Positions 6,916 to 60,081 of a stretch of DNA of 64,000 nt are shown here, one piece after another; the stretch's first letter is position 1, and every line of letters starts with the position of its first letter. This DNA is from Candidatus Poribacteria bacterium (GTDB taxonomy: Bacteria > Poribacteria > WGA-4E > WGA-3G). A program made the translations under genes and the position numbers. The notes beneath the pieces were generated by a model. That model worked only from the letters and a program-made list of their open reading frames with translations. It was not told the DNA's origin and searched no databases. The stretch is from the NCBI GenBank assembly GCA_965198235.1, contig OZ240248.1, positions 2,208,001 through 2,272,000 of the forward strand, written 5' to 3'.

Positions 6916-6924
6916 CGGGAATAT

Positions 6925-6957
6925 AGGGACGGGTCACCGTGCCCGTCCCTTTTTTTC
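6925..6957 (+). terminator. Rho-independent terminator
   Basis: AGGGACGGG-loop-CCCGTCCCT followed by a T run, between convergent genes. Confidence 0.8.
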
Positions 6958-8103: not shown

Positions 8104-8110
8104 AGTTGAT

Positions 8111-8139
8111 AATTTACCATAAGTCCCGCGAATTGTCAA
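8111..8139 (-). promoter_or_regulatory. Sigma70-type promoter (leaderless candidate)
   Basis: TTGACA-17 nt-TAAATT, with only 7 nt before the ATG and no SD sequence. Confidence 0.6.
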
Positions 8140-8173
8140 GTTCAGACAGCGCTATGGCAGAGCGATTCTATTC

Positions 8174-8202
8174 TCCTGTAGGAGGGATCTCCGAATCCCG
8201 AC
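8174..8202 (+). repeat. GTAG-class REP-like palindrome
   Basis: TCCTGTAGGAGGGATCTCCGAATCCCGA. Identical inverted copy at 17563-17590 and a variant at 32115-32138. Confidence 0.75.
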
Positions 8203-8212
8203 TTTTTCTAAC

Positions 8213-8241
8213 TTGATCTTTTTATGAGACACGGCTATAAT
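8213..8241 (+). promoter_or_regulatory. Sigma70-type promoter
   Basis: TTGATC-17 nt-TATAAT upstream of the AGGAGG RBS. Confidence 0.6.
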
Positions 8242-8264
8242 AAAATTACTAAAAGGAGGAGCAC

Positions 8265-9032: not shown

Positions 9033-9079
9033 AGATTGCAGGGTCCCTTAAGCACACAGAAAAACGAAAAGGAGGAGTT

Positions 9080-9940
9080 ATGCGTCCCTATTTCGATGTC
9101 CATTGTCACATCGGTATGACGGTATCACGCGCGCCGACTATAGGTCAGAGCGTCGGACGATGTCTCGCCCGGATGGCTTCCGCAGGTGTTATCGGTGCGA
9201 TTCCCTGCCCAACGGGTGGTAGTCCGCAGGCACGTGGTGTATTGGACACGCGCGCACAACACGAGACGATTGCCAACGCATGTAAGCTCTATCCAGAACG
9301 CTTTCCGATTGGACTTGGGATCGCGGAAGTCCGACACGAACAAGCGGGTGCTGACGAATTAGACAGAGCCATGCAGGAAGATGGTTTGGTTGGATTTATG
9401 TGTCATCCTGGATTGTCTGGACATTCACTCGGTGGTGAGCTATACGCGTTCCTTGAAGTCGTAGCGATGCACAACGGATTATGTCTGCTACATCAGGCAG
9501 GTTCCACCCAAAATATTGCTGCTTACGCGCAGCGATTTCCGTCGATAACGTTTATTATCGGGCATGTTTCAATGAATAAAGCCGGACATCTCGATGCAAT
9601 TGCGCAGTGTGGAAAATGCGAGAATATCTGGTTCGATGTAGCACAGAAGCCGGAAGGGGCAGATACGGGTTGGGACCTTGTACACCTCGTCAATAATCTC
9701 GGGAGCGACAGGATTATGTTCGGGAGCGACCTGCCGTATTACAATTTTCGTCTGGTGCAGGCGCAGATTGAATCCGCAGGACTTGATGATGAAACAAAGG
9801 AACGGATTGCCTACCGGAACTCGGCGCGGTTGGTTCAGCAATTCCGGGTAGACTGGATACCGACGTTGACCCCAATAACGCCCCCACAAGTTTACTCTGA
9901 GGCTGAGATGTGGGATGCGAATGGGGCAAGGCTGCGCTAA
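9080..9940 (+). CDS. Amidohydrolase_2 family metal-dependent hydrolase
   Basis: 'FDVHCH', 'IIGHV', 'DRIMFGSDLPY'. AGGAGG RBS. Confidence 0.85.
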   Translation: MRPYFDVHCHIGMTVSRAPTIGQSVGRCLARMASAGVIGAIPCPTGGSPQARGVLDTRAQHETIANACKLYPERFPIGLGIAEVRHEQAGADELDRAMQEDGLVGFMCHPGLSGHSLGGELYAFLEVVAMHNGLCLLHQAGSTQNIAAYAQRFPSITFIIGHVSMNKAGHLDAIAQCGKCENIWFDVAQKPEGADTGWDLVHLVNNLGSDRIMFGSDLPYYNFRLVQAQIESAGLDDETKERIAYRNSARLVQQFRVDWIPTLTPITPPQVYSEAEMWDANGARLR

Positions 9941-9975
9941 CCAGTAGAAGCGATCTCCCAATCGCGACGCAATGG

Positions 9976-10842
9976 TTACTTGACAATTTCGACTGCACGA
10001 ATCCGACGGTGGAGCACGAAAAGGCAAAGGACTATCAGGGCAATCTGGACGAGGAGTGCCCACGCCCAATGCACGGCGTACTCGTGTGAACCCGCAAATA
10101 GGGCTGTGCCGAGAATGTCGTAGTGTGCCCAAATGGAAACTAAAGCCATTTTACTGGTGCGGGTAATCGATTTGAGTACCTCGTAGATAACAGGCGAACC
10201 GAACCACACGGCGCAGAAACCGATGATGGCATAGCGAGGATTTGAGGTGAGAGATGAGAACAATAACATCAATAGACTGGAAGAGAACGTGATAAGCACC
10301 GAGTAGGCAACGATCGAAAGAGGGATCCAATAGTTCTCTTTCAGAAAAGGGGTATCGGTCAGCAGCGCATGTTCAAGAAATAGCAACAGTCCCGGAACCA
10401 ATGTGAGACAACCGATCAAGATACCGATGACAGCAAATTTCCCGATCAGGTAGTCTATCCATGAAAGAGGTTTGGAGAGATAGAGTGAGAGCGCGTTGTT
10501 CTTTAGGTCAGTGGCGATTAATCCAGATCCCCCGAAAATAGCAATCAGCGCGATGAGAAATGAGGAAGGGGGACCTGTGCCGGGGTTTCGGAATAGAAAT
10601 TTCTGAAAGAATTCGTTGTCAATATCAAACGGAAACTCCACTCCCGCCACCTGGTTAAGGATGTAAATAAGGATTGCGTGAACCAAGATGTAGATTGCGG
10701 GGGGAATAGCAACAATCAATCGGACAATTTTGCGTTGTGTCAGCAGTTTTAACTCTGCTTTTGTGATAATCCACCACCGTGTATGAGGGCGGGGGTTCAG
10801 TGTGCCTTCCCAATGTCGGTAGTCTTGTGTGTGAATGGGCAT
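9976..10842 (-). CDS. ABC-2 type transporter permease
   Basis: About 6 TM segments and 'IATDLKNNALSLYLSKPLSWIDYLIGK', an ABC-2 permease signature. Confidence 0.85.
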   Translation of the reverse strand: MPIHTQDYRHWEGTLNPRPHTRWWIITKAELKLLTQRKIVRLIVAIPPAIYILVHAILIYILNQVAGVEFPFDIDNEFFQKFLFRNPGTGPPSSFLIALIAIFGGSGLIATDLKNNALSLYLSKPLSWIDYLIGKFAVIGILIGCLTLVPGLLLFLEHALLTDTPFLKENYWIPLSIVAYSVLITFSSSLLMLLFSSLTSNPRYAIIGFCAVWFGSPVIYEVLKSITRTSKMALVSIWAHYDILGTALFAGSHEYAVHWAWALLVQIALIVLCLFVLHRRIRAVEIVK

Positions 10843-10926
10843 ATTTCTTAATTCAGTCTCGCTATTTGTATGATTCTGAAGAACAACAGTGATAAGGCTA
10901 CGCGTTTAAAATATTAAGCCAAAACG

Positions 10927-11015
10927 CTAGTCCGTAATGAAATGGAGGACGGCTTTAGAGCGAGGAAAATCAAGTTCCCAACCCACGTCATTTAACCGCA
11001 AGGCATAATTAAAAA
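10927..11015 (+). repeat. Dispersed hairpin repeat, subfamily A variant
   Basis: CTAGTCCGTAATGAAATGGAGGAC...AACCGCAAGGCATAATTAAAAA. Confidence 0.75.
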
Positions 11016-11021
11016 GCTGTC

Positions 11022-11540
11022 TTAATGCTTATAGATGGCGGTTCTCTCTAAGGTATCCGAGAAGGGCCCCTGTTTTTCAGTCTGAATTTCAACGGTGATG
11101 ACACCTAAAGGCGTGTCGCGTTCCGGATCTTCGTCGATGAAGGCACGCGGGATTTCCGCAGTCATGAGCCGATCCAGTCTATTAAGTTCTTGCGACCAAC
11201 GGAGGTCGATGAGCCGTCCATCGTAGACTTTCTTATGTTGCTTCCCGTTACGCATGGAATAAACCTTGACATTGGTGGTGAAATCCGCTTCAGAAACAGT
11301 GCTCACGCCGATACTTGGACTGAGGATGCTCTGATTCCATATCAACGGTATGCCGTTTCTATCAACCAGATAAATCCGTAGATCAATCCTATCAACGCGT
11401 GAGTCCGAGTGGATCTGGATGCCCTCAAAATTCTGAATTACCCCGCTCCCACACGAAAGCGTAACAAGAACGCAGATGCCGACGAGCACGACTCTCCGAC
11501 TCTTTAATATAAGCTTGCGGGGCAAATTAAAACGAAACAC
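11022..11540 (-). CDS. Hypothetical lipoprotein
   Basis: GAGGAGG RBS. Hydrophobic stretch ending 'TLSC'. No recognised domain. Confidence 0.7.
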   Translation of the reverse strand: MFRFNLPRKLILKSRRVVLVGICVLVTLSCGSGVIQNFEGIQIHSDSRVDRIDLRIYLVDRNGIPLIWNQSILSPSIGVSTVSEADFTTNVKVYSMRNGKQHKKVYDGRLIDLRWSQELNRLDRLMTAEIPRAFIDEDPERDTPLGVITVEIQTEKQGPFSDTLERTAIYKH

Positions 11541-11650
11541 ATCAATCCTCCTCTATTGGGTTTTTAAGGGCAGCTTGCAGGCTTCCCATAGAAGTCCGTT
11601 TCAATTCATTATAGCGTTTTAAGAGGCGGATGTCAATCTAAAATCCCGTC

Positions 11651-11678
11651 TTGCATCTTTTCTCAAAAGTGATATAAT
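11651..11678 (+). promoter_or_regulatory. Sigma70-type promoter
   Basis: TTGCAT-16 nt-TATAAT with an extended TG. Confidence 0.5.
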
Positions 11679-11762
11679 GATACTCATGATACCCACTTCT
11701 GGGACCGAGTGCGTGGATACTTTAAAAAGAGAGAAACGTACAAACTCTCAAAGACATCTAAG

Positions 11763-11844
11763 CTTAATCGGAAACCTGCCCGTAACGAAGTGGAGGGGTT
11801 TTTGCTTGGGTGTTGCTTTAGTCCAGGGTCCATAGTTAAAAAAA
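11763..11844 (+). repeat. Dispersed structured repeat, subfamily B (copy 2)
   Basis: AAACCTGCCCGTAACGAAGTGGAGGGGTTTTTGCTTGGGTGTTGCTTTAGTCCAGGGTCCATAGTTAAAAAAA, lying in the 5' leader of the ADH gene. Confidence 0.8.
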
Positions 11845-11863
11845 CAAATTTCGGAGGAACCCC

Positions 11864-12946
11864 ATGAAAGCCGCAGTATTATATGAAACTGACACACACT
11901 TAAAGATTGAGGAGTTCGACTTACCGCGTCCAAGCGCGAATCAGGTACGAGTGCGATTGGTCGCCAGTGGCGTTTGCCACTCCGATTGGCACGTCGTTAA
12001 GGGCGATTGGCCCTTCGTCAGGTTACCTGTCATCCTTGGACATGAAGGGGCTGGAATCATTGAAGAGATCGGAAGCGATGTGACGCAAGTCCAGGTCGGT
12101 GACCATGTTATCCTTTCATGGAAACGGAACTGTGGATACTGCGAAATGTGCCAGAAAGGGTATCCGAATTTGTGTGCGCTTCCTTCCGACGGTTCAGGCA
12201 GACCAGCTATAAAATCAAGTGGACGTGAGATCGACCAGATGTCGGGATTAGGAACATTCGGCACTGAGACGCTCGTTCCACAAGACGCGGTTGTTCCCAT
12301 TGATAAGGACATGCCGTTCGCACAAGCCGCGCTGATTGGGTGTGGCGTGATGACAGGGGTCGGTGCGGCTATCAATACAGCAGAAGTTTCACCCGGCAGT
12401 TCAGTCGCTGTCTTTGGATGCGGTGGGGTTGGACTCAATTGCATACAAGGTGCCGCGCTTTCTGGTGGTGAGCCTATTATTGCCGTTGATGTACTGGACA
12501 ACAAACTTGAACTCGGCAAACAGTTTGGTGCGACGCACATGGTTAACGCCTCCGAGGTAGACCCCGTAGAACGAATTAAGGAGATTACCGATGGACGTGG
12601 TGTCCACTATGCATTTGAGGCAATCGGGTTGATCGGTGAAACCTTCCGACAAGCGATCCTCTGCACGCGGAGTAGAGGTGTGACGGTGTTTGTCGGGCAT
12701 GCCCCGGAGAATACCTCCGTCGAATTCGATGCACGGATGCTGATGCCAGAGAAGATGGTTATCGGTTCGATGTACGGCACTGCGCGTCCGCATGTAGATT
12801 TCCCGCGTTTGGTTTCGCTCTATAAAGCCGGGCAACTTAAGCTGGACGAACTCGTCACGCGCACCTATCCCTTGGAAGGGATAAATGAGGCATTTGAGGC
12901 TTTGGCAAGAGGCGAAGTCGCACGGAGCGTCCTTGATTTAACTTAA
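11864..12946 (+). CDS. Zn-dependent alcohol dehydrogenase (class III/FDH-like MDR)
   Basis: 'GVCHSD', 'GHEGAG', structural Zn motif 'CGYCEMC...C', 'GCGVMTG', 'GCGGVG'. Confidence 0.92.
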   Translation: MKAAVLYETDTHLKIEEFDLPRPSANQVRVRLVASGVCHSDWHVVKGDWPFVRLPVILGHEGAGIIEEIGSDVTQVQVGDHVILSWKRNCGYCEMCQKGYPNLCALPSDGSGRPAIKSSGREIDQMSGLGTFGTETLVPQDAVVPIDKDMPFAQAALIGCGVMTGVGAAINTAEVSPGSSVAVFGCGGVGLNCIQGAALSGGEPIIAVDVLDNKLELGKQFGATHMVNASEVDPVERIKEITDGRGVHYAFEAIGLIGETFRQAILCTRSRGVTVFVGHAPENTSVEFDARMLMPEKMVIGSMYGTARPHVDFPRLVSLYKAGQLKLDELVTRTYPLEGINEAFEALARGEVARSVLDLT

Positions 12947-45005: not shown

Positions 45006-46043
45006 CTATAGTTTGGCTCTCAGTTTATCCATTAGCCCATCTGGTGGATCGAAGGGGAGTTCAATCACTTCGTTTGTTATCCCGCTATAGTAAATTCCCA
45101 GTAGCAGGTTGAACTCGGCGAGCGATTGCTCAAGATGCGTGGGATGTACCTTGCTCTCGTCGTCCAGCCAATCAAAGACTGCCTCAGTAAGATTGCCTTG
45201 TGCGACGACATCCTGTTCTCCGTAGCTAAGTGGACCGCCCTCATAGCCGTTCTCCGGTGTTGAGCGTTCCCAACTACTAAATCGCCAATGCACGAAGCCT
45301 TTCGTTCCAATCACAAAGACGCGTTTATGGAAAAAGACGACGGGATCGTCAGAGGCAGTCGGTGCGATGGCTGTCCCGAACGCAACAGAGATATGAAGCC
45401 CGTTCTCGTACTGAACGCGCGCACTCGCATATTGCGGAGAGGGTTGCGCTGAATCCAAGTGTTCGGCACCAGAGATTTGTCCGAGGACTCGCACCGGACG
45501 CGAGTTGTCAATATAGGAGGAAACGAGTTGCAATACATGCGGGCCCTGATCAACGGGTGTGCTCCGTGCGCTCGCATCAATGAATTTGATCTCCCCGATG
45601 CGACCTTTTGCAACATCCTGCTTCAATTCCAGATTCTGTGGGTGGAAGTTGAGTTGCGTGTTGACGACGAATTTCGTTTCCGTTTCCTTGGAAAGTCCTG
45701 ATATTTGTTTCCAGTCCTCGCTTTCAACAGCGATCGGTTTCTCGACAATCGCCGCTGGCACACCGGCATCCGATGCTTGTTTCATCAACGGATAGCGAAT
45801 ACGCTCATTGCTACCCCGCAGCACGGGTGCTGTGACGATGTGGAGAACATCGGGTTTCTCTTTTTCAAGCATCTCGTCCAAGTCGGTGTAGCGTGAAGAG
45901 ATACCGAAGTCGTCTCCGAATTTGTTAAGTAATTCTGTGTTCATATCACAGATTGCGGCGAGTTTGCCATTTTTAACGAAGCGATAGGCATCTGCATGCG
46001 CGCGTGCGCGACCCCCGCAGCCTAACATCGCTGTTTTATACAT
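45006..46043 (-). CDS. Gfo/Idh/MocA oxidoreductase, tandem paralog 4
   Basis: 'MYKTAMLGCGGRA', 'IVEKP'. Confidence 0.9.
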   Translation of the reverse strand: MYKTAMLGCGGRARAHADAYRFVKNGKLAAICDMNTELLNKFGDDFGISSRYTDLDEMLEKEKPDVLHIVTAPVLRGSNERIRYPLMKQASDAGVPAAIVEKPIAVESEDWKQISGLSKETETKFVVNTQLNFHPQNLELKQDVAKGRIGEIKFIDASARSTPVDQGPHVLQLVSSYIDNSRPVRVLGQISGAEHLDSAQPSPQYASARVQYENGLHISVAFGTAIAPTASDDPVVFFHKRVFVIGTKGFVHWRFSSWERSTPENGYEGGPLSYGEQDVVAQGNLTEAVFDWLDDESKVHPTHLEQSLAEFNLLLGIYYSGITNEVIELPFDPPDGLMDKLRAKL

Positions 46044-46128
46044 AGAAAGGTCTCCTTTAAATCAATAATATTTCTAACACCAAGCTAAAATAGATGGATG
46101 CTAATCGGAGAAAGTATAAGTTGACTTT

Positions 46129-47172
46129 TTATAGTTTTTCTCGGAGTACATCAATCAATCCATCGGGCGGTTCAAACGGGAGTTCAATAATCTGGTTCGT
46201 TACCCCGCTGTAGTAGATGCCGAGGAGGAGATTGAATTCCGCGAGAGATTGCTTGAGATGCGTCGGATGCACATTGTTCTCATCATCAAGCCAATCGAAA
46301 ACAGCCTCTGTAAGATTCCCCTGTGCCACGACATCCTGCTCTCCATAGTCAAGCGGACCACTCTCGTAACCACCGTCTGGTGTTGAGCGTTCCCAACTGC
46401 TAAACCGCCAGTGCACGAAACCTTTCGTACCGACGACAAAGACGCGTTTGTGGGTGTGATTACCCGCATCCGGATCTTTAGGCACTCGCTGCCCTACACC
46501 TGTCCCGAAGGCAAGAGAGACGTGAAGACCATTTTCATATAAAGCCTGAGCAGCAGCATGCATAGGGGAAGGCTGAGTGGAGTCTAAATCCTGAGCCCCA
46601 GAAACCTGTCCGAGCACCCGCGCAGGACGTGAGTTGTCGATGTAGGAAGAGACGAGTTGCAACACGTGGGGTGCTTGGTCGACGGGAGTGCTCCGGGCAC
46701 TGGCATCAATAAACTTGATTTCACCTATTCTACCCTCTGAGACATCCCGTTTCAATTCCAAGTTTTGGGGGTGGAAGTTGAGTTGTGTGTTAACGACGAA
46801 CTTGGTCTTTGTCTCTTCTGCTAATCCTGCAAGCTGCTTCCAGTCCTCGCTCTCAACGGCAATCGGTTTTTCGACGATCGCCGCAGGCACACCGGCATCC
46901 GATGCTTGTTTCATCAGTGAGTACCGAATCCGTTCATTGGTGCCGCGTAACACCGGTGCCGTAACGATATGGAGGACATCGGGTTTTTCTTGTTCAAGCA
47001 TCTCGTCTAAGTCAGTGTATCGTGAAGAGATACCGAAGTCGTCTCCGAAACTGGTGAGCAGTTCTTCGTTCATATCACAGATTGCGGCGAGTTTGCCATT
47101 TTTGATGAAGCGATAGGCATCTGCATGTGCACGGGCACGTCCACCGCATCCTAACATCGCAGTTTTATACAT
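46129..47172 (-). CDS. Gfo/Idh/MocA oxidoreductase, tandem paralog 3
   Basis: 'MYKTAMLGCGGRA', 'IVEKP'; highly similar to its neighbours. Confidence 0.9.
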   Translation of the reverse strand: MYKTAMLGCGGRARAHADAYRFIKNGKLAAICDMNEELLTSFGDDFGISSRYTDLDEMLEQEKPDVLHIVTAPVLRGTNERIRYSLMKQASDAGVPAAIVEKPIAVESEDWKQLAGLAEETKTKFVVNTQLNFHPQNLELKRDVSEGRIGEIKFIDASARSTPVDQAPHVLQLVSSYIDNSRPARVLGQVSGAQDLDSTQPSPMHAAAQALYENGLHVSLAFGTGVGQRVPKDPDAGNHTHKRVFVVGTKGFVHWRFSSWERSTPDGGYESGPLDYGEQDVVAQGNLTEAVFDWLDDENNVHPTHLKQSLAEFNLLLGIYYSGVTNQIIELPFEPPDGLIDVLREKL

Positions 47173-47215
47173 GGAAAATTCTCCTCTAAACGTTCCGTAT
47201 GAATTCGGATTGGGT

Positions 47216-48253
47216 TTACAATTCTTTCCTGAGTGAGTCCATTAATCCGTCAGGCGGTTCAAACGGTAGATCAATAATCTCGTTTGTTATCCCGCTATAG
47301 TAAATCCCTAAAAGTAGGTTGAACTCCGCGAGAGATTGCTTGAGATGCGTCGGATGGACGTTGTTCTCATCGTCAAGCCAGTCAAAGACAGCCTCAGTGA
47401 GGTTTCCTTGTGCAGCAGTATCCTGTTCTCCATAGTTGAGAGGTCCCCCTTCGTAGCCGCTTTCCGGTGTTGTCCGCTCCCAACTACTGAATCGCCAATG
47501 CACAAAACCTTTCGTGCCGACGACAAAAACACGTTTATGTGCAACAGTACTCTCACTGTCCGATGCCAACGTCCCCATGCCAGTGCCAAACGCAACAGAA
47601 ACGTGGAGGCCGTTCTCGTACAAAACATGCCCGGCAGCATGCATCGGAGACGGTTGTGCTGAATCTAACTGTTCGGCGCCAGAGATTTGTCCAAGCACAC
47701 GGGTCGGACGCGAGTTATCGATGTAGGATGACACCAACTGTAGCACATGTGGTGCTTGGTCGACCGGCGTGCTGCGTGCGCTGGCATCAATAAACTTAAT
47801 CTCACCAATACGACCTGCCGCTACATCCGCTTTTAATTCAAGATTCTGTGGATGGAAGTTAAGTTGTGTATTGACGACAAATTTCGTTTGTGTCTCTTCC
47901 GCCAAACCTGCGATCTGCTTCCAGTCCTCGCTTTCAACAGCAATTGGCTTTTCAACGATCGCCGCAGGCACACCGTGGTCGGATGTCTGTTTCATCAACG
48001 GGTACCGGATGCGCTCACTGGTGCCGCGTAACACCGGTGCCGTAACAATGTGGAGGACATCGGGTTTCTCTTTTTCAAGCATCTCATCAAGATCGGTGTA
48101 GCGTGAAGAGATACCGAAATCGTCTCCAAAACTGTTGAGTAGTTCTTCGTTCATATCACAGATCGCAGCGAGTTTACCACCTTTGACAAAACGGTAAGCA
48201 CTTGCATGTGCACGGGCACGACCCCCGCAGCCTAACACCGCTGTTTTATACAT
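47216..48253 (-). CDS. Gfo/Idh/MocA oxidoreductase, tandem paralog 2
   Basis: Start trimmed to MYKTAVLG by alignment with the paralogs and the RBS. Confidence 0.9.
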   Translation of the reverse strand: MYKTAVLGCGGRARAHASAYRFVKGGKLAAICDMNEELLNSFGDDFGISSRYTDLDEMLEKEKPDVLHIVTAPVLRGTSERIRYPLMKQTSDHGVPAAIVEKPIAVESEDWKQIAGLAEETQTKFVVNTQLNFHPQNLELKADVAAGRIGEIKFIDASARSTPVDQAPHVLQLVSSYIDNSRPTRVLGQISGAEQLDSAQPSPMHAAGHVLYENGLHVSVAFGTGMGTLASDSESTVAHKRVFVVGTKGFVHWRFSSWERTTPESGYEGGPLNYGEQDTAAQGNLTEAVFDWLDDENNVHPTHLKQSLAEFNLLLGIYYSGITNEIIDLPFEPPDGLMDSLRKEL

Positions 48254-48359
48254 GAGGTTGTCTCCTCTAATATTAACAATAGCACGCCAACGGCGCACCA
48301 GAACGTAGGGCGGAACGAAAGTACGGAGATCTCACCCCACAACACAGATTCATTTCAAA

Positions 48360-49406
48360 TTACAACTTCTCTCGGAGCATGTCCATCAGCCCATCGGGCG
48401 GTTCAAACGGGAGCTCGATAATCTCATTTGTTATCCCGCTGTAGTACATCCCTAAGATGAGGTTAAACTCAACGAGCGATTGCTTGAGATGCGTCGGATG
48501 CACAGTGTTCTCATCGTCTAACCAATCAAAAACTGCTTCGGTGAAGTTAGCCTGTGCGACGACATCTTGCTCTCCATAGTTAAGCGGACCGCTCTCATAG
48601 CCACCCTCCAAGGTTGTGCGTTCCCAACTGTTGAACCGCCAATGCACGAAGCCCTTCGTTCCAGCAACAAAAACACGTTTGTGTCCGTAGATACCCGGGT
48701 CATCGGATGCCTTTTGTGCCATCTCTGTTCCAAATGCGAGAGAAACATGGAGACCGTTCTCATACAAAGCATGCCCGACAGCATGCGTCGGAGACGGATG
48801 CCCCCCAGGAGCAAAATTTAAATTCTCGCTTCCAGAGATTTGCCCAAGAATCCGCACCGGACGCAAGTTGTCGATGTAGGAGGACACCAACTGTAGCACA
48901 TGTCCTCCCTGCTCGGCGGTTCTGCTGCGCGCACTGGCATCAATGAACCTAATCTCGCCGATCCGTCCTTCCACGACATCTTTTTTTAACTCCAGATTTT
49001 TCGGATGGAAGTCGAGTTGTGTATTGACGACGAATTTCGTTTTCGTCTCTTCCGCTAACCCCGCAATCTGTTTCCAATCTTCGCTTTCAATGGCAACCGG
49101 TTTCTCAACAATTGCCGCTGGCACACCGTGGTCGGATGCCTGTTTCATCAACGGGTAACGGATACGTTTGTTGCTACTCGGAACCACAGGGCTTGTGACG
49201 ATGTGAAGAACATCAGGTTTCTCTTTTTCAAGCATCTCATCCAAGTCGGTGTAGCGTGAAGAGATACCGAAGTCATCCCCGAATGTGTTGAGTCGTTCTT
49301 CGTTCATATCGCAGATTGCGGCGAGTTTCCCGCGTTTGACGAAGCGATACGCATCTGCGTGCCCACGGGCGCGACCCCCGCACCCTAACATCGCTGTTTT
49401 ATACAT
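48360..49406 (-). CDS. Gfo/Idh/MocA oxidoreductase, tandem paralog 1
   Basis: Start trimmed to MYKTAMLG. Most divergent of the four copies. Confidence 0.9.
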   Translation of the reverse strand: MYKTAMLGCGGRARGHADAYRFVKRGKLAAICDMNEERLNTFGDDFGISSRYTDLDEMLEKEKPDVLHIVTSPVVPSSNKRIRYPLMKQASDHGVPAAIVEKPVAIESEDWKQIAGLAEETKTKFVVNTQLDFHPKNLELKKDVVEGRIGEIRFIDASARSRTAEQGGHVLQLVSSYIDNLRPVRILGQISGSENLNFAPGGHPSPTHAVGHALYENGLHVSLAFGTEMAQKASDDPGIYGHKRVFVAGTKGFVHWRFNSWERTTLEGGYESGPLNYGEQDVVAQANFTEAVFDWLDDENTVHPTHLKQSLVEFNLILGMYYSGITNEIIELPFEPPDGLMDMLREKL

Positions 49407-49520
49407 CGGAATGTCTCCTATTGGAGGTATCATCTATCATCAGTTTTGCCATTAGATTATCAGAGAGATATGTTTTTGTCAAACCTTATTAAATTCTTGA
49501 ACCTCGTCAGGAAAAACAAT

Positions 49521-49549
49521 TTGACCTCTGCCCTAAAATATGCTAACAT
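49521..49549 (+). promoter_or_regulatory. Sigma70-type promoter of the STAND locus
   Basis: TTGACC-17 nt-TAACAT with an extended TG. Confidence 0.45.
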
Positions 49550-49644
49550 ATTGCTATGAAACACTGTTGATGTACTAAACTAATTTTGAGAAGATATATC
49601 TATTCTATTGTTCAACCTGCTGCCGCCATCAAAGGGAAATTCCA

Positions 49645-52600
49645 ATGAAAAAAGTGTTATCAGACTACATAAAAACAAAGGAAGACTTCGATCGATTCTG
49701 CAACCTATTCCTGAAAAAAGAGGTGTCTCCCTTCGTTAAAGTGTACGACGCGCCAGGTCGCGATGGCGGAATTGATGCAGACTACACCGGAGTTTATAAG
49801 AAAAGGGACGGCACCTGGATCTTCCAATACAAATTTTTTGACCCAACAATAGATAAGGGACGTGCCCGTAGCCAACTCATTTCCCAAATGAAAGGTGGCA
49901 AACGTAAAAAGGGTGAACTCGACAAAGCCGATGCCTTGCAGTGTGATCACTACGTTCTCATGACCAGTACCTTACTTACTGCTGGTAACAAGCGTAAAAT
50001 TGAGGACCTTAAAAACGAGAAAGAATATACGTTTTCGTTAATCTGTTGGGATGCAGAAGACCTCATCGCGATGACTGATGAGTTTCCTTACCTCTTAAAT
50101 TCATTCCGAGATCCCTATCTACCCGTATTTCTTCCTTGGCAGGACATGTTCCGAGATCAAACTACGGGTAAACATCAATTGTTAAGATACGACTATGAAA
50201 CCTTCGGACGCGAGGATGAGATACGTCAATTTCAAACCTTTGTTCGAGACCCAGACAAAAGACTACTCATGGTATACGGTAGCGGTGGCATAGGAAAAAC
50301 CAAGCTCGCTATTGAGTTTGCAAAAACAGTTGAACAAGAGCACACAGATTATGAGCCTCTCTTTGTTCAGATGGCTGGAGACAGTTTTGAAAGTGCTCTT
50401 GCAGATATTCCTCCCAATCGGAACTACGTCTTTTTTATAGACGATGCACATGACTTGATTGACCACCTTGGGGGCATCAACATAATTCTGAACAGTTCTG
50501 GATACAGCGAATCCAAAGCAGTGATCATAACGCGGAAGCCGTTTAAAGCGTCTTTGGAGGGTTGCTTCCTAACCGCCTTACCGGATGATGCGGTTGATGA
50601 ACTTGAAATCCGAAAACTTTCTCTGGAGGAAACGAAGGAATTCATCCGCACGTACACGCGTATACCCGACGGTTCGCTTTTAACAGGGTTAGCACAGATT
50701 GGACGAGATACGCCGCTGATTGCTGCTATGGTGATAGATTCTCTCAATAAAGGACTCGATTTGAGGGATTTAACAACAAAGGATAAATTGGTTGAACTTA
50801 CGTTTGAATCCTATCTAAATGATATCTTCAGCAAACATCTGCCAAGATCCGACAAGCGGCACCGAAAATTGCTGGACTGGCTTAGCGGGATTGCATCCAT
50901 TGACACAGAAGACAACCGAATACGCGATAAATTGGCTGAAATCTTAAAAGTGGAGCCTTATGAGATAGAGCAATACCGCGATGATCTGAGAGCATACGGC
51001 TTGCTTCTTCAGTTTGGGCGAAAACAGCGTGTCTTTCCCGATGTGCTCAGTGATTATATTTTACGGAAAGCGTGCTTTCTCTCCGATGGGAGACCGTCTT
51101 CTTTCCACAAAAGTCTGTTGGATGATTTTTTGCCTCTTCTCCCCATCAAAGTAATCATCAATCTTGCTCGCGTGGAAAACATCACTGGTGAAAAAAATCT
51201 TCTTGATGAACATGTTGATTCTCTGAAAACCCGAGTAGAGGAAGGTGATAATGTTGTTCGCGAGCATATCTTGGAGCAGATGGAAGGCATCAGTTATTTT
51301 CGTCCAGATGATGCAACTGAAATTTTCAATATTATCTTCGATAACCCTAAAGAAGATTATGTGAGGCACTATAGGGGATGGACATCCATACGAACCCATC
51401 AAGATTTGATAAAGAAGGTTGCCAAAGAAGTACAGAAAACAGTCAATACGCTCTCTGGATTTACGAAGACCCTAAAAATAGTCCGCAAACTCCTGCTGAT
51501 GGGTGATTTGGAGCTTCCAAATCACGATTCGCCGCAAGAGTTGTTGAAAAGGATGGCAGGTTTCCAAACGAGCAAACCCAGCGTGTTTCAAACGAGGGTG
51601 ATTGAATCGTTTGAGGTATGGGAAAAGGAAGATGAACCTGAACTAAGTTTGGCTCTACTCAACGCTCTTGACTCACTTCTCGTGTTGGATTTCAGTGAAA
51701 CTTTCAGTGAAGGCAGTTCTTTGAAGTTTGATTGGCACCATTTAAATTATACACCTGAATTGAGTCAACTCAGAGCGAAGGCGATTAACCTAATTGAGCA
51801 TTGCCTGAGAACATCTCAACATAGTACCGTCAAAGCAGAAGCGATAGGCTCTATTAGTCGAGCGATAAATCCTTTGGAAAGCTCATTTCGGCAGGGAATT
51901 GCAGAAGAGGAACAAGCTCTCTTACAAGAGGATCAGACGCGACTCTTCAACATATTAGCTGATCAAATGTTAAAAGAATCCGATTTTACTGTTCTTAATG
52001 CAATAGATCGGTGTCTTCATGGATATACAGAAAACACATATTTAGGCGGTTTTCCGAAAGAGAAGGCAGCGGAATTACTTGCTAAATTTCACGAACATGA
52101 AAATTATGAAAGGTACCACTTCTATCGTCAATTTACTGGGAAATTCCGAGACTGGGAAGCGAGTGAGAGTACTGAACAAACTCAGGCGTTCTTGGAAAGT
52201 TATATCAAGAAATACACATCTACACAACTCTCATGTCTAATGCAAGAATGTATAGAAGTTGCTGAACAAGGGAAAGAGTACCGAAGTACCAGAGATGGGA
52301 TCTGGTCAGAAAAAGGGTGGAATCCTGGAAGTGCGACATCGCTGCTTCACTCTATCGGTAAAATTGACCCTTCCTACGGGGTTGATTTACTGTATTGCAT
52401 TGTTGCTTGGCAAACAGATGAATCGCATTGTGCTTCAGGTTTACTCAATGGCATTCGCTGTTCTGACAAGGATAAAGCCCTTGAAGCAACCCGCCGTCTT
52501 CTAAATCAGGATACCATCTTTGCCAAACACATCGTCGCAAGAAGTTATTCTTGGAGAAGCAAAACTGACCAAGATTTTGGCAAAGAAGATCTGTCCATTT

Positions 52601-53565
52601 TGGATCAATTGTCTAAAACGCCAGATTCGCAATTGCCTCTGTATATAGCCGAAAGTCTTCCGAATTTCTATGTTGTGGATGCGAATACTGTCCTTGAAAT
52701 TTTGGTAAGACTGTCAAGTGATGAATCACCTATGGTTACGAGGCAAATCATCCACGCTCTCACCGGTAAAGAACTTAAATTCTCACCACAAAACCACTTG
52801 GAAAAATACAAGAAAGTGATGCGTAATTGTGTTCGTTTAGAACGCATTGATCATGATGCTGAACGAATTCTACACACTATCTTCAGGCATGAACCGATCT
52901 GGGTTATCAAATTTTTTGAGGAGCGAATTGCTTACAAAGAGAATGAATCTAACCGCTACAATTCAATTTCGGATCGACCATCTGAGTTGTTTAAGTTTGA
53001 CGCGGTCCCCCATCGGCCATACTATCTATTTGAGGGTGTGGATTGGAATAATCAAAACGTGCTTGGAGCCTTGAAACGTGTGAGGGATTGGGTTCTTCAT
53101 ACCTCAAACCTCTTGAGATTTGAGGCACCCAACTTGCTTACATCTATGCTCAGTGAAACGCGTAGCAGTAAAGTCAAAATTAATCCGGCAATGAGGAAAC
53201 TCCTTGGGGAATGGATAGACTCAAAAGATTTAGAACTGATGAGAGAGGCTGCTTATCTGATGAGGGGATTCGACCCAGACACCGTCTTTTATTCCCTTGC
53301 GGAATTGCTTGTCATAAAAAGCAAGGGCGACAAACAAGTGCAAGGTGGAATCATCGCTGCACTTTCCTCGGGGGTTTACTCGAGAAGCTTCGGTGAGCCT
53401 GCACCGCATCTTGTGAAACGTATCAAAGACCTCGAAGCGTTACGGGATAGAACACAATCGCTGATTTTTAAACAATTCGCCGAAGATCTCATAGAAATGA
53501 CAGAACAAGATATTGAAATACAAGCACAAGAAGATGAAGAGTTTCTTGAAGGGGAAGAATGGTAA
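49645..53565 (+). CDS. Restriction-endonuclease-like (Mrr-type) nuclease-STAND NTPase with long helical C-terminus; putative anti-phage protein
   Basis: N-terminal 'FDRFC...GRDGGIDA...IFQYKF'. Walker A 'GSGGIGKT', Walker B 'FFIDDAH', 'GRDTPL', 'FPDVLSDY'. Confidence 0.8.
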   Translation: MKKVLSDYIKTKEDFDRFCNLFLKKEVSPFVKVYDAPGRDGGIDADYTGVYKKRDGTWIFQYKFFDPTIDKGRARSQLISQMKGGKRKKGELDKADALQCDHYVLMTSTLLTAGNKRKIEDLKNEKEYTFSLICWDAEDLIAMTDEFPYLLNSFRDPYLPVFLPWQDMFRDQTTGKHQLLRYDYETFGREDEIRQFQTFVRDPDKRLLMVYGSGGIGKTKLAIEFAKTVEQEHTDYEPLFVQMAGDSFESALADIPPNRNYVFFIDDAHDLIDHLGGINIILNSSGYSESKAVIITRKPFKASLEGCFLTALPDDAVDELEIRKLSLEETKEFIRTYTRIPDGSLLTGLAQIGRDTPLIAAMVIDSLNKGLDLRDLTTKDKLVELTFESYLNDIFSKHLPRSDKRHRKLLDWLSGIASIDTEDNRIRDKLAEILKVEPYEIEQYRDDLRAYGLLLQFGRKQRVFPDVLSDYILRKACFLSDGRPSSFHKSLLDDFLPLLPIKVIINLARVENITGEKNLLDEHVDSLKTRVEEGDNVVREHILEQMEGISYFRPDDATEIFNIIFDNPKEDYVRHYRGWTSIRTHQDLIKKVAKEVQKTVNTLSGFTKTLKIVRKLLLMGDLELPNHDSPQELLKRMAGFQTSKPSVFQTRVIESFEVWEKEDEPELSLALLNALDSLLVLDFSETFSEGSSLKFDWHHLNYTPELSQLRAKAINLIEHCLRTSQHSTVKAEAIGSISRAINPLESSFRQGIAEEEQALLQEDQTRLFNILADQMLKESDFTVLNAIDRCLHGYTENTYLGGFPKEKAAELLAKFHEHENYERYHFYRQFTGKFRDWEASESTEQTQAFLESYIKKYTSTQLSCLMQECIEVAEQGKEYRSTRDGIWSEKGWNPGSATSLLHSIGKIDPSYGVDLLYCIVAWQTDESHCASGLLNGIRCSDKDKALEATRRLLNQDTIFAKHIVARSYSWRSKTDQDFGKEDLSILDQLSKTPDSQLPLYIAESLPNFYVVDANTVLEILVRLSSDESPMVTRQIIHALTGKELKFSPQNHLEKYKKVMRNCVRLERIDHDAERILHTIFRHEPIWVIKFFEERIAYKENESNRYNSISDRPSELFKFDAVPHRPYYLFEGVDWNNQNVLGALKRVRDWVLHTSNLLRFEAPNLLTSMLSETRSSKVKINPAMRKLLGEWIDSKDLELMREAAYLMRGFDPDTVFYSLAELLVIKSKGDKQVQGGIIAALSSGVYSRSFGEPAPHLVKRIKDLEALRDRTQSLIFKQFAEDLIEMTEQDIEIQAQEDEEFLEGEEW

Positions 53566-54371
53566 ATTTAACGCACGAAGCCAGTCTCCTTCAAAAAATT
53601 GAGGATCTAGCTACAAACCGAAAAATCCAAATCACCGTAGGGTTAACTGCTCAAGATGCCGAAACTAAAATTCAAAAGTTGATTCCAACAACCCATCAAC
53701 GACTCAACGCGGCAAGGTTTTATCTGGATTTGATGGGGAGTGTGGACTATACCCCCTATATTATGAGCAGATTCTCTCTATCCACAGAGCAAAAACCGTT
53801 AATTGACTTTTCGGATAACGACCTCCATGTTCAAATTAACCTGTTAAACCCTGACACTTTTCCGTTGGTTGTTTTTATCGTTCTGCACGGTTTCTTTTCC
53901 AATATCGTTAGCTCCGACGATTGTGTGGCAAAAGTCATCAACATCGTTTACGGTCTACTTAAAAATGATCGTAACGGTTCCAAAATACGTCAAGAGTTAG
54001 AAAACAAAATACCAAATGGTCTTCTGACCCGGCATTTACGCAATTTTCATCTGGTGAGCCGGAGTGGAAATTCGGACCAAATAGGTTTTTCTTTTAGTAT
54101 CGCGAAGCAAATCAGGAATCAATTGACACATGATCACATAAACGATTTGGTAGATTTTCCAACTATTTTTGATCTCTCAGGGCCCTTGGAGGGTTCAACC
54201 TTCAAGCTACATTTCAATCCTGAATTTTTCCCCGCCAATATCTCTCGTGGAAACACTGAACTAATTACCTTTTGCAACAGCGTATTTAAAGAAACAGTAG
54301 GTTTCGTAGATGAGTGCTATAGGCTAATTCTCGGCAAACTCCAGCATAGTGGTGTTCTCCCGGTTTTATGA
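53559..54371 (+). CDS. Putative HEPN-domain protein
   Basis: Overlaps the STAND stop (ATGGTAA). Helical protein with an R-N-x3-H motif 'RNQLTH'. Confidence 0.55.
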   Translation: MVNLTHEASLLQKIEDLATNRKIQITVGLTAQDAETKIQKLIPTTHQRLNAARFYLDLMGSVDYTPYIMSRFSLSTEQKPLIDFSDNDLHVQINLLNPDTFPLVVFIVLHGFFSNIVSSDDCVAKVINIVYGLLKNDRNGSKIRQELENKIPNGLLTRHLRNFHLVSRSGNSDQIGFSFSIAKQIRNQLTHDHINDLVDFPTIFDLSGPLEGSTFKLHFNPEFFPANISRGNTELITFCNSVFKETVGFVDECYRLILGKLQHSGVLPVL

Positions 54372-54394
54372 TTCTCCGATTTCCGTAATCGCTG

Positions 54395-55435
54395 TTAAGA
54401 GGCGATGTAAACTTTTTCACCACTCTGTGCACTGTCGTAGAATGCGTCCAAGATTTGCATAAAGGTATATGCATCGGGTGCTGCGACATCTGGTGCGACC
54501 TCGCCTGCTATCGCCATAGCGAAGTGGTTGAGTTCATAGTAGAAGACGTGGACCTCTTCAGGGAGTTCACCGTGGTCGATTTCGAGTGGTTCCTCAACGG
54601 TTTCTCGGACGAATTCGCCATCTTTAAATCGTGCTATGCCACCGTTCGTGATTGCGCCGATGGTGCCGTAAAGTTCAACGACGCTGGCGGAGTCGGAGTG
54701 GCTCATCCGGGAACAATCGATCTGGATGGTTTTTCCGCCTTCACATCCGAGTATGCCGGTGAAATAGTCCTCTGCCGGTCCCTCCGGTCCATCGTACTGG
54801 GGGTAAAGTACGTGCTTAGCGGCAAACGCCCACTCCGGTTTCGGACACCCCATCCACCACCAAGTAAGGTTGAGTTCGTGCGAATAGTGTTGCCCTAACG
54901 AACCGCCCTTCTGCCCGTAGACGTGTAGCCATCGACTGTTGATATCGAGTTGTGGAATGAAGTTGTATTTCCCGAAGACGCGAGCGTGATACAGATCTCC
55001 GATCGCCCCGTTTAGGACAGCGCGCCGAATCTTTCGGTTGTTCGGAAAGTGGCGCATAAAGTAGCAGAATTGCAGTGTTTTCCCGGCTTGTTGTGCGGCT
55101 GCTTCCATCTCTAAGATTTCGGGTGCGCGGATTGCGTGCGGTTTTTGCACTAAGACGTGCTTACCAGCACTGAACGTATCCAGAACTTGTTGTAGTCTGC
55201 CATCTGGGGAAGTCGCGAGATAGACGGCTTCAACGTCAGGGTTGTCAAGGAGTTCCCGATAGTCGGCATAGCGGTGTGGTACTGCATTGTCATCACCCGC
55301 CTGTTCTCGACGGACTGGGTCGCGTTCTGCGATTGCAATAACGTTCAGTCGCGAGGTGGCATTAGCGGCGTTGATCGCTTGACAGCCTGCCCATCCACAG
55401 CCAACGACTCCAAGTTGAATGAATTGGTTCGTCAT
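54395..55435 (-). CDS. Gfo/Idh/MocA family oxidoreductase
   Basis: 'GVVGCGWAG', 'GKHVLVQKP'. Confidence 0.9.
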   Translation of the reverse strand: MTNQFIQLGVVGCGWAGCQAINAANATSRLNVIAIAERDPVRREQAGDDNAVPHRYADYRELLDNPDVEAVYLATSPDGRLQQVLDTFSAGKHVLVQKPHAIRAPEILEMEAAAQQAGKTLQFCYFMRHFPNNRKIRRAVLNGAIGDLYHARVFGKYNFIPQLDINSRWLHVYGQKGGSLGQHYSHELNLTWWWMGCPKPEWAFAAKHVLYPQYDGPEGPAEDYFTGILGCEGGKTIQIDCSRMSHSDSASVVELYGTIGAITNGGIARFKDGEFVRETVEEPLEIDHGELPEEVHVFYYELNHFAMAIAGEVAPDVAAPDAYTFMQILDAFYDSAQSGEKVYIAS

Positions 55436-58839: not shown

Positions 58840-60081
58840 ATGACTACCCTCATGGCAGGTGCCGCGGAGACTGTGATTACCTCCATAAAGGACAGACCCA
58901 ATGTTTACGCTGAGTTGTATGCGCGTGCATTGGTGCTCGCCGATGGTGAAAAGCAACTCGCTATTGTGACAGCCGACTATGGGCAGTTTTCAATTCAGTA
59001 CAATAAAGTGCTGCTTGAAGCAATCCAGGATGCCACCGGCATACCGCCAGAGCATGTCGTCATTAACTGTAGCCATACGCATAACGCTCCGGGGGTTGAC
59101 GGACGATGGATGAGTGAAGCATCTGAAGCGTGGTTGGCGACGTGTCTTGCTGAATTGGTGAAAGATGCAGTTGGTAAACTTGAACCTGCGACTTTGCGCG
59201 TCGGACGTGCACCCGTTCAAGTTGGTTACAACCGTCGCATAATGAATGATGAGGGCTATATTACCATGGCACCCAATCCTGAAGGTTCTGTTGTGCCGTG
59301 GGTTGACGTGTTAGGGGCTTACGATGCAAATGGGGACATCATCGCAGTGCTGTTCTCACATGCGGCGCACCCGGTGATTGTCCACTGGTCGAGCGAGGAG
59401 ATAGGTGCTGATTTCCCCGGCTATGCCGTTGAACATCTGCGCAATTTCTTGGAGTTGAAGCCGGAAAGCATCTTACTCTTTGCGCAAGGCTGCGCCGCAG
59501 ACATCAACGGGTATCCGTTGCGAGGTGGTTTCAGTGCTTGCGATGTCGCTGGATTCACACTCGCGTTTGCGACACATCAAGCGTTGAAAACTTCGAAAGA
59601 GGTTCCTGCTGCACCCCTTAAAGCGTATTCGGAACTTGTCAATTTGCCGTTCCGAGATCCGCCATCAGTTACCGAATGCGAGCAGTTAATCAAAGAATTT
59701 CCTGACGATGAACGCTATGTCGCCTTATTAGAAGTTGCTAAGAGCGGCGAAAAGCGTGCCTTGCCTTTTCCAATAAGCGCATTTGCGGTCGGCGATGCGC
59801 TCTGTTTCTTGTCTGTATCTCATGAACTTTTCTCGGAGTACCAACTCTTTGTTGATGAAACGTCGCCGTTCGCGCATACATTCGTCTTTGGCTATACGAA
59901 CGGCAGTGAGGTCTATATTGCGACCAGAGCAGCTTACGAGTTGGGGCTGAAGGCAGGTTATGAGGCAGGACCCCGGAACCATGCCCTCAGTGGTCCCTAT
60001 CGGTTAGCACTGTTGCCCGCAGTCGAAGAACAGATTCATGAGGAGATAACGAATCTGCTCGGAAAACTAAAAGAATTATAG
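58840..60081 (+). CDS. Neutral/alkaline ceramidase N-terminal-domain-like hydrolase
   Basis: 'LYARALVL', 'SHTHNAP', 'NRR', 'AAHP', 'ADFPG', 'QGCAADIN', 'GYE'. Confidence 0.75.
   Translation: MTTLMAGAAETVITSIKDRPNVYAELYARALVLADGEKQLAIVTADYGQFSIQYNKVLLEAIQDATGIPPEHVVINCSHTHNAPGVDGRWMSEASEAWLATCLAELVKDAVGKLEPATLRVGRAPVQVGYNRRIMNDEGYITMAPNPEGSVVPWVDVLGAYDANGDIIAVLFSHAAHPVIVHWSSEEIGADFPGYAVEHLRNFLELKPESILLFAQGCAADINGYPLRGGFSACDVAGFTLAFATHQALKTSKEVPAAPLKAYSELVNLPFRDPPSVTECEQLIKEFPDDERYVALLEVAKSGEKRALPFPISAFAVGDALCFLSVSHELFSEYQLFVDETSPFAHTFVFGYTNGSEVYIATRAAYELGLKAGYEAGPRNHALSGPYRLALLPAVEEQIHEEITNLLGKLKEL

Follow-up and report, generated by a model that had tools for sequence, protein, structure and literature searches.

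Within a 64,000-nucleotide stretch of a Candidatus Poribacteria genome (contig OZ240248.1, positions 2,208,001 to 2,272,000; hereafter the window), we have analysed two adjacent genes that encode a large protein of 1306 residues, P0001, and a small protein of 270 residues, P0002. A preliminary description of this DNA had proposed that they form a new two-gene anti-phage system, in which a nuclease-STAND ATPase is coupled to a HEPN-like protein. The open reading frames (ORFs), the motifs and their coordinates were all found where that description had placed them, and so was the 7-nt overlap between the stop of the P0001 gene and the start of the P0002 gene (ATGGTAA, 53559-53565), through which the two are probably translationally coupled. 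The pair is the sole plus-strand unit between minus-strand Gfo/Idh/MocA genes, of which four lie in tandem upstream (45006-49433) and a fifth downstream, and it is indeed AT-richer than its surroundings, with a GC content per 1-kb window of 0.41-0.44 within the locus and 0.48-0.53 in both flanks. What NLRs are to animals and plants, Avs-type STAND proteins are to bacteria, and in most of the well-studied ones the effector is part of the STAND polypeptide itself. To judge by its sequence, the pair described here is real, probably defensive, and a previously undescribed two-gene variant of the Avs-type systems.

The N-terminal part of P0001 was thought to be a nuclease of the D...D...QxK type, and our data agree with this. 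The motifs GRDGGIDA (49756-49779) and IFQYKF (49819-49836) hold D40, D44 and the Q61-x-K63 pair, all invariant in nine of nine P0001 orthologues at identities down to 51%. The AlphaFold2 (AF2) model of residues 1-185 is of moderate quality (predicted local distance difference test, pLDDT, 67.6) and has an alpha-beta-beta-beta-alpha-beta core. Using Foldseek, the first match of this model was Avs4 in its complex with portal (8dgf_B; E = 5e-4, probability 1.00), followed by MspJI (9.4e-4) and then AspBHI. VIA-align also placed Avs4 first (8dgf_A, residues 1-184; Z = 9.6, root-mean-square deviation 4.0, 137 aligned residues), with the Mrr-type domains of LlaBIII (Z = 9.2), AF1548 (8.5), AspBHI (8.4) and MspJI (7.6) next. 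Mrr_cat made up 19 of the 30 named matches in the ESM Atlas (score 0.94), which is a lead only. The first ~100-110 residues matched the PADLOC model PDC-S73 (3e-11; model positions 12-107 of 752), and the N-terminus also weakly matched the REase of short-pAgo partners in the same collection. A profile of the domain retrieved nothing from the PDB sequences, and Pfam PF04471 (Mrr_cat) gave no match to P0001 at E up to 1. Despite this last result, the Avs4-first fold matches of two aligners and the invariant catalytic residues lead us to accept a Mrr-type PD-(D/E)xK nuclease fold for this region, a predicted DNase that is closest to the effector of Avs4.

The middle of P0001 is, by its motifs and relatives, a STAND NTPase, as had been claimed. 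It carries a Walker A motif (GSGGIGKT, 50278-50301), a Walker B motif (FFIDDAH, 50431-50451) and a GxP-like motif (GRDTPLIAA, 50701-50727), and in Pfam P0001 gives sub-cut-off matches to AAA_16 (7.8e-7), ATPase_2, nSTAND3, nSTAND6, NPHP3_N, NB-ARC and HEAT_2; NCBIfam yielded nothing useful for this protein. Homology to NB-ARC is reached through paralogues. STAND paralogues in five genomes of the same order share ~20-23% identity with P0001 over residues ~156-1295 (E 1e-17 to 7e-24), and two of the three that were scanned (1306, 1306 and 1370 aa; 29.4, 29.5 and 19.4 bits) pass the NB-ARC cut-off of 23.5 bits. In the alignment of P0001 with its paralogues, G214, G215, G217, K218, T219, D266, D267, P357 and L358 are invariant. 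The best PDB sequence match of the whole protein is the NB-ARC protein 9h2l, at the level of the P-loop only. As a side observation, the N-terminus of paralogues L032, L033 and L034 (genomes G030, G049 and G036) aligns with the Mrr domain and lacks the D...QxK residues; these paralogues have no trailing small gene, and they lie beside a DDE transposase or a Schlafen AlbA_2 / HATPase_c_4 protein.

The long helical C-terminus that had been proposed for P0001 appears to be a HEAT-like region; its HEAT_2 match stays below the cut-off (residues 985-1039; 26.1 bits vs 27.7). PF13646 is precomputed for P0001 and for many of its orthologues. This C-terminus is the least conserved part of the orthologues (0.54-0.71 identity per 50 aa, compared with 0.76-0.82 in the first 300 residues), as expected of a sensor, and we presume that it has this role. 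One orthologue with 64% identity to P0001 matches the adaptin-like OloA model of PADLOC over residues 901-1167 (3.6e-8), and P0001 itself has no match to OloA at E up to 1.

For P0002, the assignment to the HEPN proteins made in the preliminary description was based on the R-x4-H motif RNQLTH (54114-54131). We found R186 and H191 invariant in 32 of 32 homologues. In a set of 11 sequences that includes relatives of 21-35% identity, N187 and H191 never vary and R186 is conserved at 90% or more; D192 is also invariant or nearly so down to 21% identity. Conservation is concentrated in the first ~60 residues and in the motif region, and the variable stretches are residues ~60-100, 135-175 and 197-235. 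Pfam PF18730 (Cthe_2314-like HEPN) is matched by four of 11 aligned family members, and the relatives P0153 (37.2 bits) and P0142 (28.6 bits; E = 9.5e-14 to P0002) lie above its cut-off of 27.1 bits. Comparing the 32-sequence P0002 alignment with three Cthe_2314-like proteins, hhalign gave a probability of 97% and E = 1e-10 over 226 columns, and laid IRNQLTHD of P0002 on IRNRTTHRP. The AF2 model of P0002 is all-alpha (pLDDT 82.8). With VIA-align, the HEPN protein 4nqf_B came first (Z = 8.8) and seven HEPN entries were found in the top 50 (ranks 1, 3, 10, 15, 16, 35 and 40; Z 8.8-6.5), the others being 2hsb, 7ae2, 8xdj, LsoA 5hy3, 1wol and 1jog. Sequence and profile searches of the PDB with the family returned chance matches only (E above 0.3). 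On the strength of the profile evidence and the motif, with a structure that is compatible rather than decisive, P0002 can be classified as a divergent Cthe_2314-like HEPN protein, and its intact R-N-x3-H-D site makes it a predicted metal-independent RNase. A HEPN-MNT pairing was not seen: Pfam scans of the locus detected no NTase domain, and the neighbours of P0002 are the STAND and Gfo/Idh/MocA genes. A 266-aa protein sharing only residues 1-75 of P0002 had raised the idea of a modular docking domain, which we rejected because the corresponding ORF runs from the 5' part of the small gene into an IS630-like transposase (HTH_32 6.2e-18, DDE_3 8.4e-22).

The association of the two genes was then surveyed in 176 Candidatus Poribacteria genomes. 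The small gene has a patchy distribution, being present in 35 of them: 17 of 64 in the window's genus besides its own genome, 15 of 40 in a second genus, and the only genome of each of two more. Strong matches to the large gene (E 0 to 1e-159) also occur in 35 genomes, and the two sets differ only by remnants in G098 and G105; 34 full-length P0001 orthologues were found in the phylum, at 59-80% identity. The preliminary description had left it to be seen whether the genes are linked elsewhere, and they are: at 34 of the 35 places with a full or near-full small gene, a large-gene match on the same strand directly precedes it, the sole exception being a second copy in G101, 1.1 kb beyond another copy. 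Judged by the coordinates, at least 28 pairs share the same 7-nt overlap geometry, and the linkage spans four genera and at least three genomic contexts. The two genes are strictly linked as an operon. That they are mere neighbours with no functional link is hardly credible given this constancy of position and overlap across genera and contexts, and stand-alone or fused forms of P0002 were not found either (fused forms were sought among longer proteins, which is weak evidence).

Beside the 34 full-length and uninterrupted large genes, the small gene is intact in 28 cases, cut by a contig end in one, and interrupted by one in-frame TAG in another; it is split by a ~1.2-kb insertion in two (the one checked is an IS630-like element) and reduced to a 3' remnant in two (G095 and G086). 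The reverse situation, an intact HEPN gene beside a STAND gene that is not intact, was seen once only, in G101, where the STAND gene is frameshifted. In that genome (C1:1592257-1599030), the frameshifted gene and its intact small gene are followed ~1.1 kb on by the second copy, a 303-aa variant with a ~26-residue insertion; the same variant is also the partner in G099 and in G092 (C13). In G171 (L041, 5546-10157), the small gene is split by an IS630-like element (HTH_32 + DDE_3), and an 826-aa WD40-repeat gene with partial PADLOC HEAT-ARM_XIII and RT-Protease_XI matches lies between the HEPN gene and the downstream Gfo/Idh/MocA gene, GFO_e.

The evolution of the two genes was compared with that of their flanks by computing nonsynonymous (dN) and synonymous (dS) divergence against three orthologous loci at the same site. 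The STAND gene has dN 0.10-0.12, dS 0.52-0.61 and dN/dS 0.17-0.20; the HEPN gene has dN 0.24-0.28, dS 1.1-2.1 and dN/dS 0.14-0.22; and the flanking genes have dN 0.02-0.05, dS 0.33-0.54 and dN/dS 0.05-0.15. Both genes of the pair are therefore under purifying selection and evolve faster than the flanks. This selection, together with the invariance of D40, D44, Q61 and K63 in P0001 and of R186 and H191 in P0002, indicates that the pair is more than a chance occurrence of ORFs and motifs. The dS of the STAND gene is flank-like, whereas that of the HEPN gene is two to three times higher. In sliding windows, nucleotide identity in the STAND gene is mosaic (0.62 to 0.99 per 200 nt), and it switches sharply at the STAND/HEPN junction, which is a recombination breakpoint. 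The HEPN allele of the window is common to four genomes (0.78-0.97 identity, at least 0.85 in all but one window) and two genomes have another allele (0.64-0.77 along most of its length). In the STAND gene, all six compared genomes show ~0.8 identity. The HEPN gene therefore has its own history and its alleles have been swapped between STAND backgrounds; it is a diversifying, freely recombining module.

These results bear on an alternative in which the Mrr-STAND protein is a self-sufficient Avs and the HEPN protein is a back-up or guard, that acts as an independent toxin or second line: held inactive at rest by binding the STAND protein, it would fire only when a phage counter-defence inhibits or destroys the latter. 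Independent evolution and recombination of the HEPN gene are what one would expect under direct phage pressure, and the near absence of an intact small gene beside a broken STAND gene would fit a need to keep the HEPN protein quiet. Against this, the one such case in G101 does exist, the locus has no antitoxin-like element, and the data do not tell this explanation from the co-effector reading. We regard it as unlikely.

To delimit the element, sites with and without it were compared. The pair is missing from five genomes of the genus, each complete or near-complete, and in all five the bordering genes GFO_d and GFO_e are adjacent, ~70-120 nt apart. By this comparison, the cassette extends from about 49491 to 54385, so that ~150 nt ahead of the STAND gene belong to it. 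Many further genomes have the pair at this site as well, some of them from two other genera; among 29 loci with 1.5-kb flanks, GFO_e adjoins the small gene in 12, and one more has the binding-protein gene. Eight loci with 7-kb flanks divide equally between the window's site and sites elsewhere. In the first of the four other sites, the pair is flanked by a pAgo gene (PADLOC 1e-146) and a DNA methylase; in the second, a type III methylase (6.6e-169) and restriction enzyme (3.1e-156) follow it directly; in the third, neighbouring ORFs resemble that type III pair in size and position; and in the fourth, it stands beside TonB-dependent receptors. At locus L039 (49-2949), a pAgo gene (PADLOC 1e-146) whose 5' end is beyond the locus is followed by a DUF6785/DUF6784 protein and, directly after it, a STAND-HEPN pair. 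No integrase, tRNA or terminal repeats were found at the cassette ends, where repeats are short and chance-like, and promoter-like and terminator-like sites are no commoner in the region than in shuffled sequences. The presence/absence pattern may be due to homologous recombination in the conserved flanks. The features of the locus are collected in Table 1.

Table 1. Features of the cassette and its borders (positions in the window).
Feature	Position	Strand	Basis
GFO_d, Gfo/Idh/MocA gene, left border of the insertion site	48360-49433	-	Pfam GFO_IDH_MocA 3.7e-17; empty-site comparison
Cassette-specific upstream region with promoter-like site 49521-49549	49491-49644	+	Filled vs empty site comparison
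P0001, predicted 1306-aa nuclease-STAND-HEAT protein	49645-53565	+	ORF; 34 full-length orthologues
Predicted Mrr-like PD-(D/E)xK nuclease domain, residues 1 to ~160-185	49645-50199	+	Invariant residues, AF2 model, Foldseek, VIA-align
Predicted STAND NTPase module	50182-51321	+	Motifs, sub-cut-off Pfam matches, paralogues
C-terminal helical HEAT-like region, presumed sensor, ~745-750 aa	51322-53562	+	HEAT_2 below cut-off, PF13646
P0002, putative divergent Cthe_2314-like HEPN protein, 270 aa	53559-54371	+	hhalign, Pfam matches of relatives, R-x4-H motif
GFO_e, Gfo/Idh/MocA gene, right border, convergent with the HEPN gene	54395-55435	-	Pfam; empty-site comparison

The surroundings of the cassette are metabolic. 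Beyond the Gfo/Idh/MocA genes, Pfam identifies HAD hydrolase, periplasmic-binding-protein and luciferase-like genes. The four upstream Gfo/Idh/MocA paralogues are 76-86% identical in protein and the fifth, downstream, is more distant; the upstream copy number differs among related genomes (four in L047-L049 and L051, five in L050). A 413-aa ORF at 58840-60081 has no Pfam match at E up to 1e-5 and is 94% identical in related genomes.

In wider searches, the P0002 family is represented by 217 proteins in a search of 5.8 billion sequences, all unnamed or 'hypothetical', with the named ones assigned to Candidatus Poribacteria, and by 32 representatives at 50% identity among 1.84 billion proteins. 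The related loci in genome contigs are all (10/10) from Poribacteria or uncultured metagenome-assembled genomes. Among plasmids, no P0002 homologue was found and the matches to P0001 are distant STAND proteins only (22-27% identity). One plasmid protein that we looked at is a 1206-aa hypothetical protein on AP018310.1, a conjugative plasmid of the cyanobacterium Aulosira laxa (L062, 4659-8279), which aligns with P0001 residues 188-1219, the NTPase and C-terminal region, at 22% identity (E = 9e-36); it has a short N-terminus without a nuclease domain and no trailing small gene.

A family almost confined to sponge-associated Poribacteria, and hosted in many genomes by a metabolic locus, could conceivably serve something other than phage defence: STAND/HEAT signalling in another conflict or in the sponge symbiosis, such as the control of plasmids and transposons or kin discrimination, and its nucleases would be the outputs. 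We consider this quite improbable, as the cassette shares its architecture with Avs proteins of proven anti-phage function, and presence/absence polymorphism, low GC, mosaicism, and pAgo and restriction-modification neighbours are typical of defence genes. A defence context, for which the preliminary description had suggested a test, is found at some of the other sites, with pAgo or type III restriction-modification genes, and is lacking at the window's own site.

Some indications of expression come from sponge metatranscriptomes. One run contains contigs identical to the window, and a 1768-nt RNA contig with 0 differences spans 52807-54574, across the gene junction, which weakly supports co-transcription of the STAND and HEPN genes. 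The promoter-like site upstream of the pair (TTGACC-17-TAACAT with TG) is of a kind that is no commoner here than in shuffles. In two runs of a single study, RNA contigs start at 49574 and 49578, 25-30 nt past this site, a weak hint that a transcript starts nearby. In run X3, the RNA contigs leave a gap at ~51200-52600 that is not interpretable.

Among known systems, Avs4 (8dgf), a sensor of portal, is the nearest relative in architecture. Its module order (Mrr-type PD-(D/E)xK domain, STAND NTPase, long helical repeats) is also the one predicted for P0001, and its N-terminal domain is the best structural match of that of P0001 by both aligners. There is no match at the sequence level, however, 8dgf being absent from phmmer and hmmsearch results against the PDB at E up to 1; the C-terminus of Avs4 consists of TPR repeats while that of P0001 appears HEAT-like, and Avs4 is a single-gene system whereas the Poribacteria system has an obligately linked HEPN gene. 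Mrr-STAND proteins as such are already known (Avs4, bNACHT25). PADLOC v2 includes Avs models. None of these is among the matches of P0001 at E up to 1, which are PDC-S73, mad8, two Aga models and STAND_TPR only. As regards the definition of an Avs protein, P0001 thus has the fused N-terminal effector and the central NTPase motifs and does not match a named Avs model. PDC-S73 covers the N-terminus of P0001 and neither the rest of P0001 nor P0002, and it is not mentioned in the literature that we searched, a search outside which most subscription journals lay.

Two-gene systems offer further comparisons. In Avs2-trypsin-MBL, as its report describes it, the protease fused to the STAND protein cleaves and activates an MBL DNase encoded by the second gene (bioRxiv 10.64898/2026.08.25.746987). 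The likeness to our pair is that a fused N-terminal effector is combined with a second, nuclease effector from an adjacent gene, and in that account both are activated together; the difference is that the fused effector is a protease there and a nuclease in P0001, with a HEPN partner, and for this reason the same activation route is unavailable for P0001 and P0002. In HEPN-STAND/NACHT fusions, a HEPN RNase is likewise the output of a STAND switch (PMC3710099; 10.1101/2022.07.19.500537), but according to these sources it is the sole effector and part of the STAND polypeptide, unlike P0002, which is separate and additional to a fused DNase. OloA of Olokun is an adaptin-like protein reported to bind the helical N-domain of a nuclease partner (bioRxiv 10.1101/2025.07.10.664194). 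An adaptin/HEAT-like protein with a helical-domain nuclease recalls our pair, the more so as one P0001 orthologue matches OloA; Olokun has no STAND module, and P0001 and P0002 have no OloA or OloB match in PADLOC. Finally, the Cthe_2314-like HEPN proteins (PF18730) are similar in size to P0002 and share with it full-length profile homology and the conserved Rx4H. P0002 differs from them in falling below Pfam detection and in having a fixed partner, where Table 1 of the 2013 census gives 'None detected' (PMC3710099).

No PADLOC v2 system model matches P0001 or P0002 as a whole, which agrees with the earlier statement that the pair corresponds to no named system, and a Mrr-STAND protein with a separate HEPN partner is not described in the literature covered, supplementary tables being outside the search as well. 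The P0001 clade may already stand in the supplementary tables of a 2026 STAND census (PMC13581612). The proposal of a new system can be kept for the combination, which was not found in that literature; rather than a new kind of system, we see in the pair a two-gene variant of the Avs family. With this shift of emphasis, the preliminary description is supported in every part that could be tested computationally.

Based on our results, we propose that the cassette is a compact two-gene conflict system, most likely anti-phage and of the Avs/bacterial-NLR kind, with the second gene providing a trans-encoded HEPN co-effector, and we give this reading a probability of roughly 55%. Its anti-phage role, the DNase and RNase activities and the physical coupling of the two proteins are all things that we infer. 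In published accounts of Avs3, Avs4, Avs7 and Avs2-trypsin-MBL, which serve as analogues, targets are bound by the repeat domain, oligomerisation depends on ATP, and effectors are activated by proximity. By analogy with the solved Avs proteins, the sensor of P0001 would bind a phage or other invader protein, and ATP-dependent oligomerisation of the STAND module would bring the Mrr domains together and lead to DNA cleavage. The HEPN protein would be the second, trans-encoded co-effector, probably docking through its conserved N-terminal ~60 residues. HEPN RNases need to dimerise, and the same assembly could switch on the HEPN protein, for example by bringing P0002 into a dimer; invader or host RNA would then also be cut and the infection would abort. 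Recruitment and activation of the HEPN protein by the STAND oligomer, with combined cleavage of DNA and RNA, is the speculative scheme that we favour, because the way in which the genes are coupled implies that both proteins are made together, the catalytic site is strictly conserved, and an intact HEPN gene without an intact STAND gene was met only once.

Several observations weigh against this proposal. The nuclease fused in P0001 offers no obvious way to activate a second protein, unlike the protease of Avs2-trypsin-MBL. P0001 reaches no Pfam gathering cut-off, and P0002 itself is without a match in Pfam, NCBIfam and PADLOC. The structural Z scores of P0002 with HEPN proteins fall within the range that any helical bundle reaches, and Foldseek, which had been suggested as a check on both proteins and which put Avs4 first for the N-terminus of P0001, found nothing for the P0002 model at E up to 0.001, the top entries being generic helical bundles, XaxA and ClyA among them. 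Defence neighbours are lacking at the window's own site, where Pfam identifies sugar-dehydrogenase-type genes only. The RNA contigs are assembled, and as such show neither transcription, strand, ends nor freedom from DNA carry-over. A complex prediction for P0001 residues 580-1306 with P0002 counts neither way: it scored 0.00 against a mark of 0.32, which says nothing on binding. Beside four of the 34 intact STAND genes, the HEPN gene is disrupted (two split, two truncated), from which it follows that the STAND gene can persist without HEPN and that its tolerance is independent of the partner.

These four loci also bear on the possibility that P0002 is a regulator or adaptor, that is, a chaperone, a brake or a sensing surface whose R and H residues bind a ligand or RNA without cutting. 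Non-catalytic HEPN domains with incomplete motifs exist, as listed in Table 1 of the census (PMC3710099). The most conserved stretch of P0002 is its N-terminal ~60 residues and not the motif region alone, and the OloA-like repeats in the STAND orthologue resemble the Olokun subunit that is reported to bind a helical partner (10.1101/2025.07.10.664194). We nevertheless find such a role rather improbable: R186, N187, H191 and D192, invariant or nearly so down to 21% identity, form a catalytic HEPN signature, and the intact STAND genes without an intact partner imply that a brake is not indispensable.

If P0002 is indeed a co-effector of the STAND protein, it may not be the only one of its family. 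Searching metagenome contigs for distant members gave nothing with P0142 and two loci with P0153. At one of them, on contig L055, a 282-aa relative of P0153 (PF18730 22.5 bits, below the cut-off) has a start that overlaps by 1 nt the stop of a gene for a 1559-aa FtsK/HerA-type ATPase (Pfam FtsK_SpoIIIE 1.3e-38; PADLOC SspH 1.6e-78), a protein unrelated to P0001. An SspG-like gene (3.2e-10) precedes this ATPase and a DrmD-like SNF2 helicase gene (2.6e-112) comes after; the region (285-12059) may be an undescribed HEPN-bearing variant of a Ssp/Dnd-type restriction module. Taken with the P0001 pair, this SspH-like ATPase means that members of the HEPN family are found behind at least two defence NTPases of unrelated kinds. 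In the 2013 census, the entry for Cthe_2314 architectures and operons in Table 1 reads 'None detected' (PMC3710099), and the literature searched gives no gene context for it. It is conceivable, although we would not count on it, that a coupled Cthe_2314-like HEPN gene behind a large defence NTPase is a general, undescribed co-effector module; in Poribacteria, one sensing event would then fire both a DNase and an RNase, with the RNase gene passing from strain to strain as a cassette independent of its sensor.

In conclusion, our results describe a defence candidate from sponge symbionts, a habitat that is thinly covered by defence catalogues. Its practical value is modest for now. A STAND protein with a fused nuclease and an obligate nuclease in trans raises the question of how an oligomerising NTPase would activate a separate HEPN protein without a protease, and the swapping of HEPN alleles provides a natural case of effector-cassette shuffling inside an immune operon. 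If the idea of a general co-effector module is true, exchange of the HEPN cassette would presumably allow escape from phage inhibitors or a change of RNA targets. The Cthe_2314-like HEPN family (PF18730), so far an orphan, gains its first conserved partner, and under the same idea it would obtain the first function and gene context for a family listed since 2013 without any.

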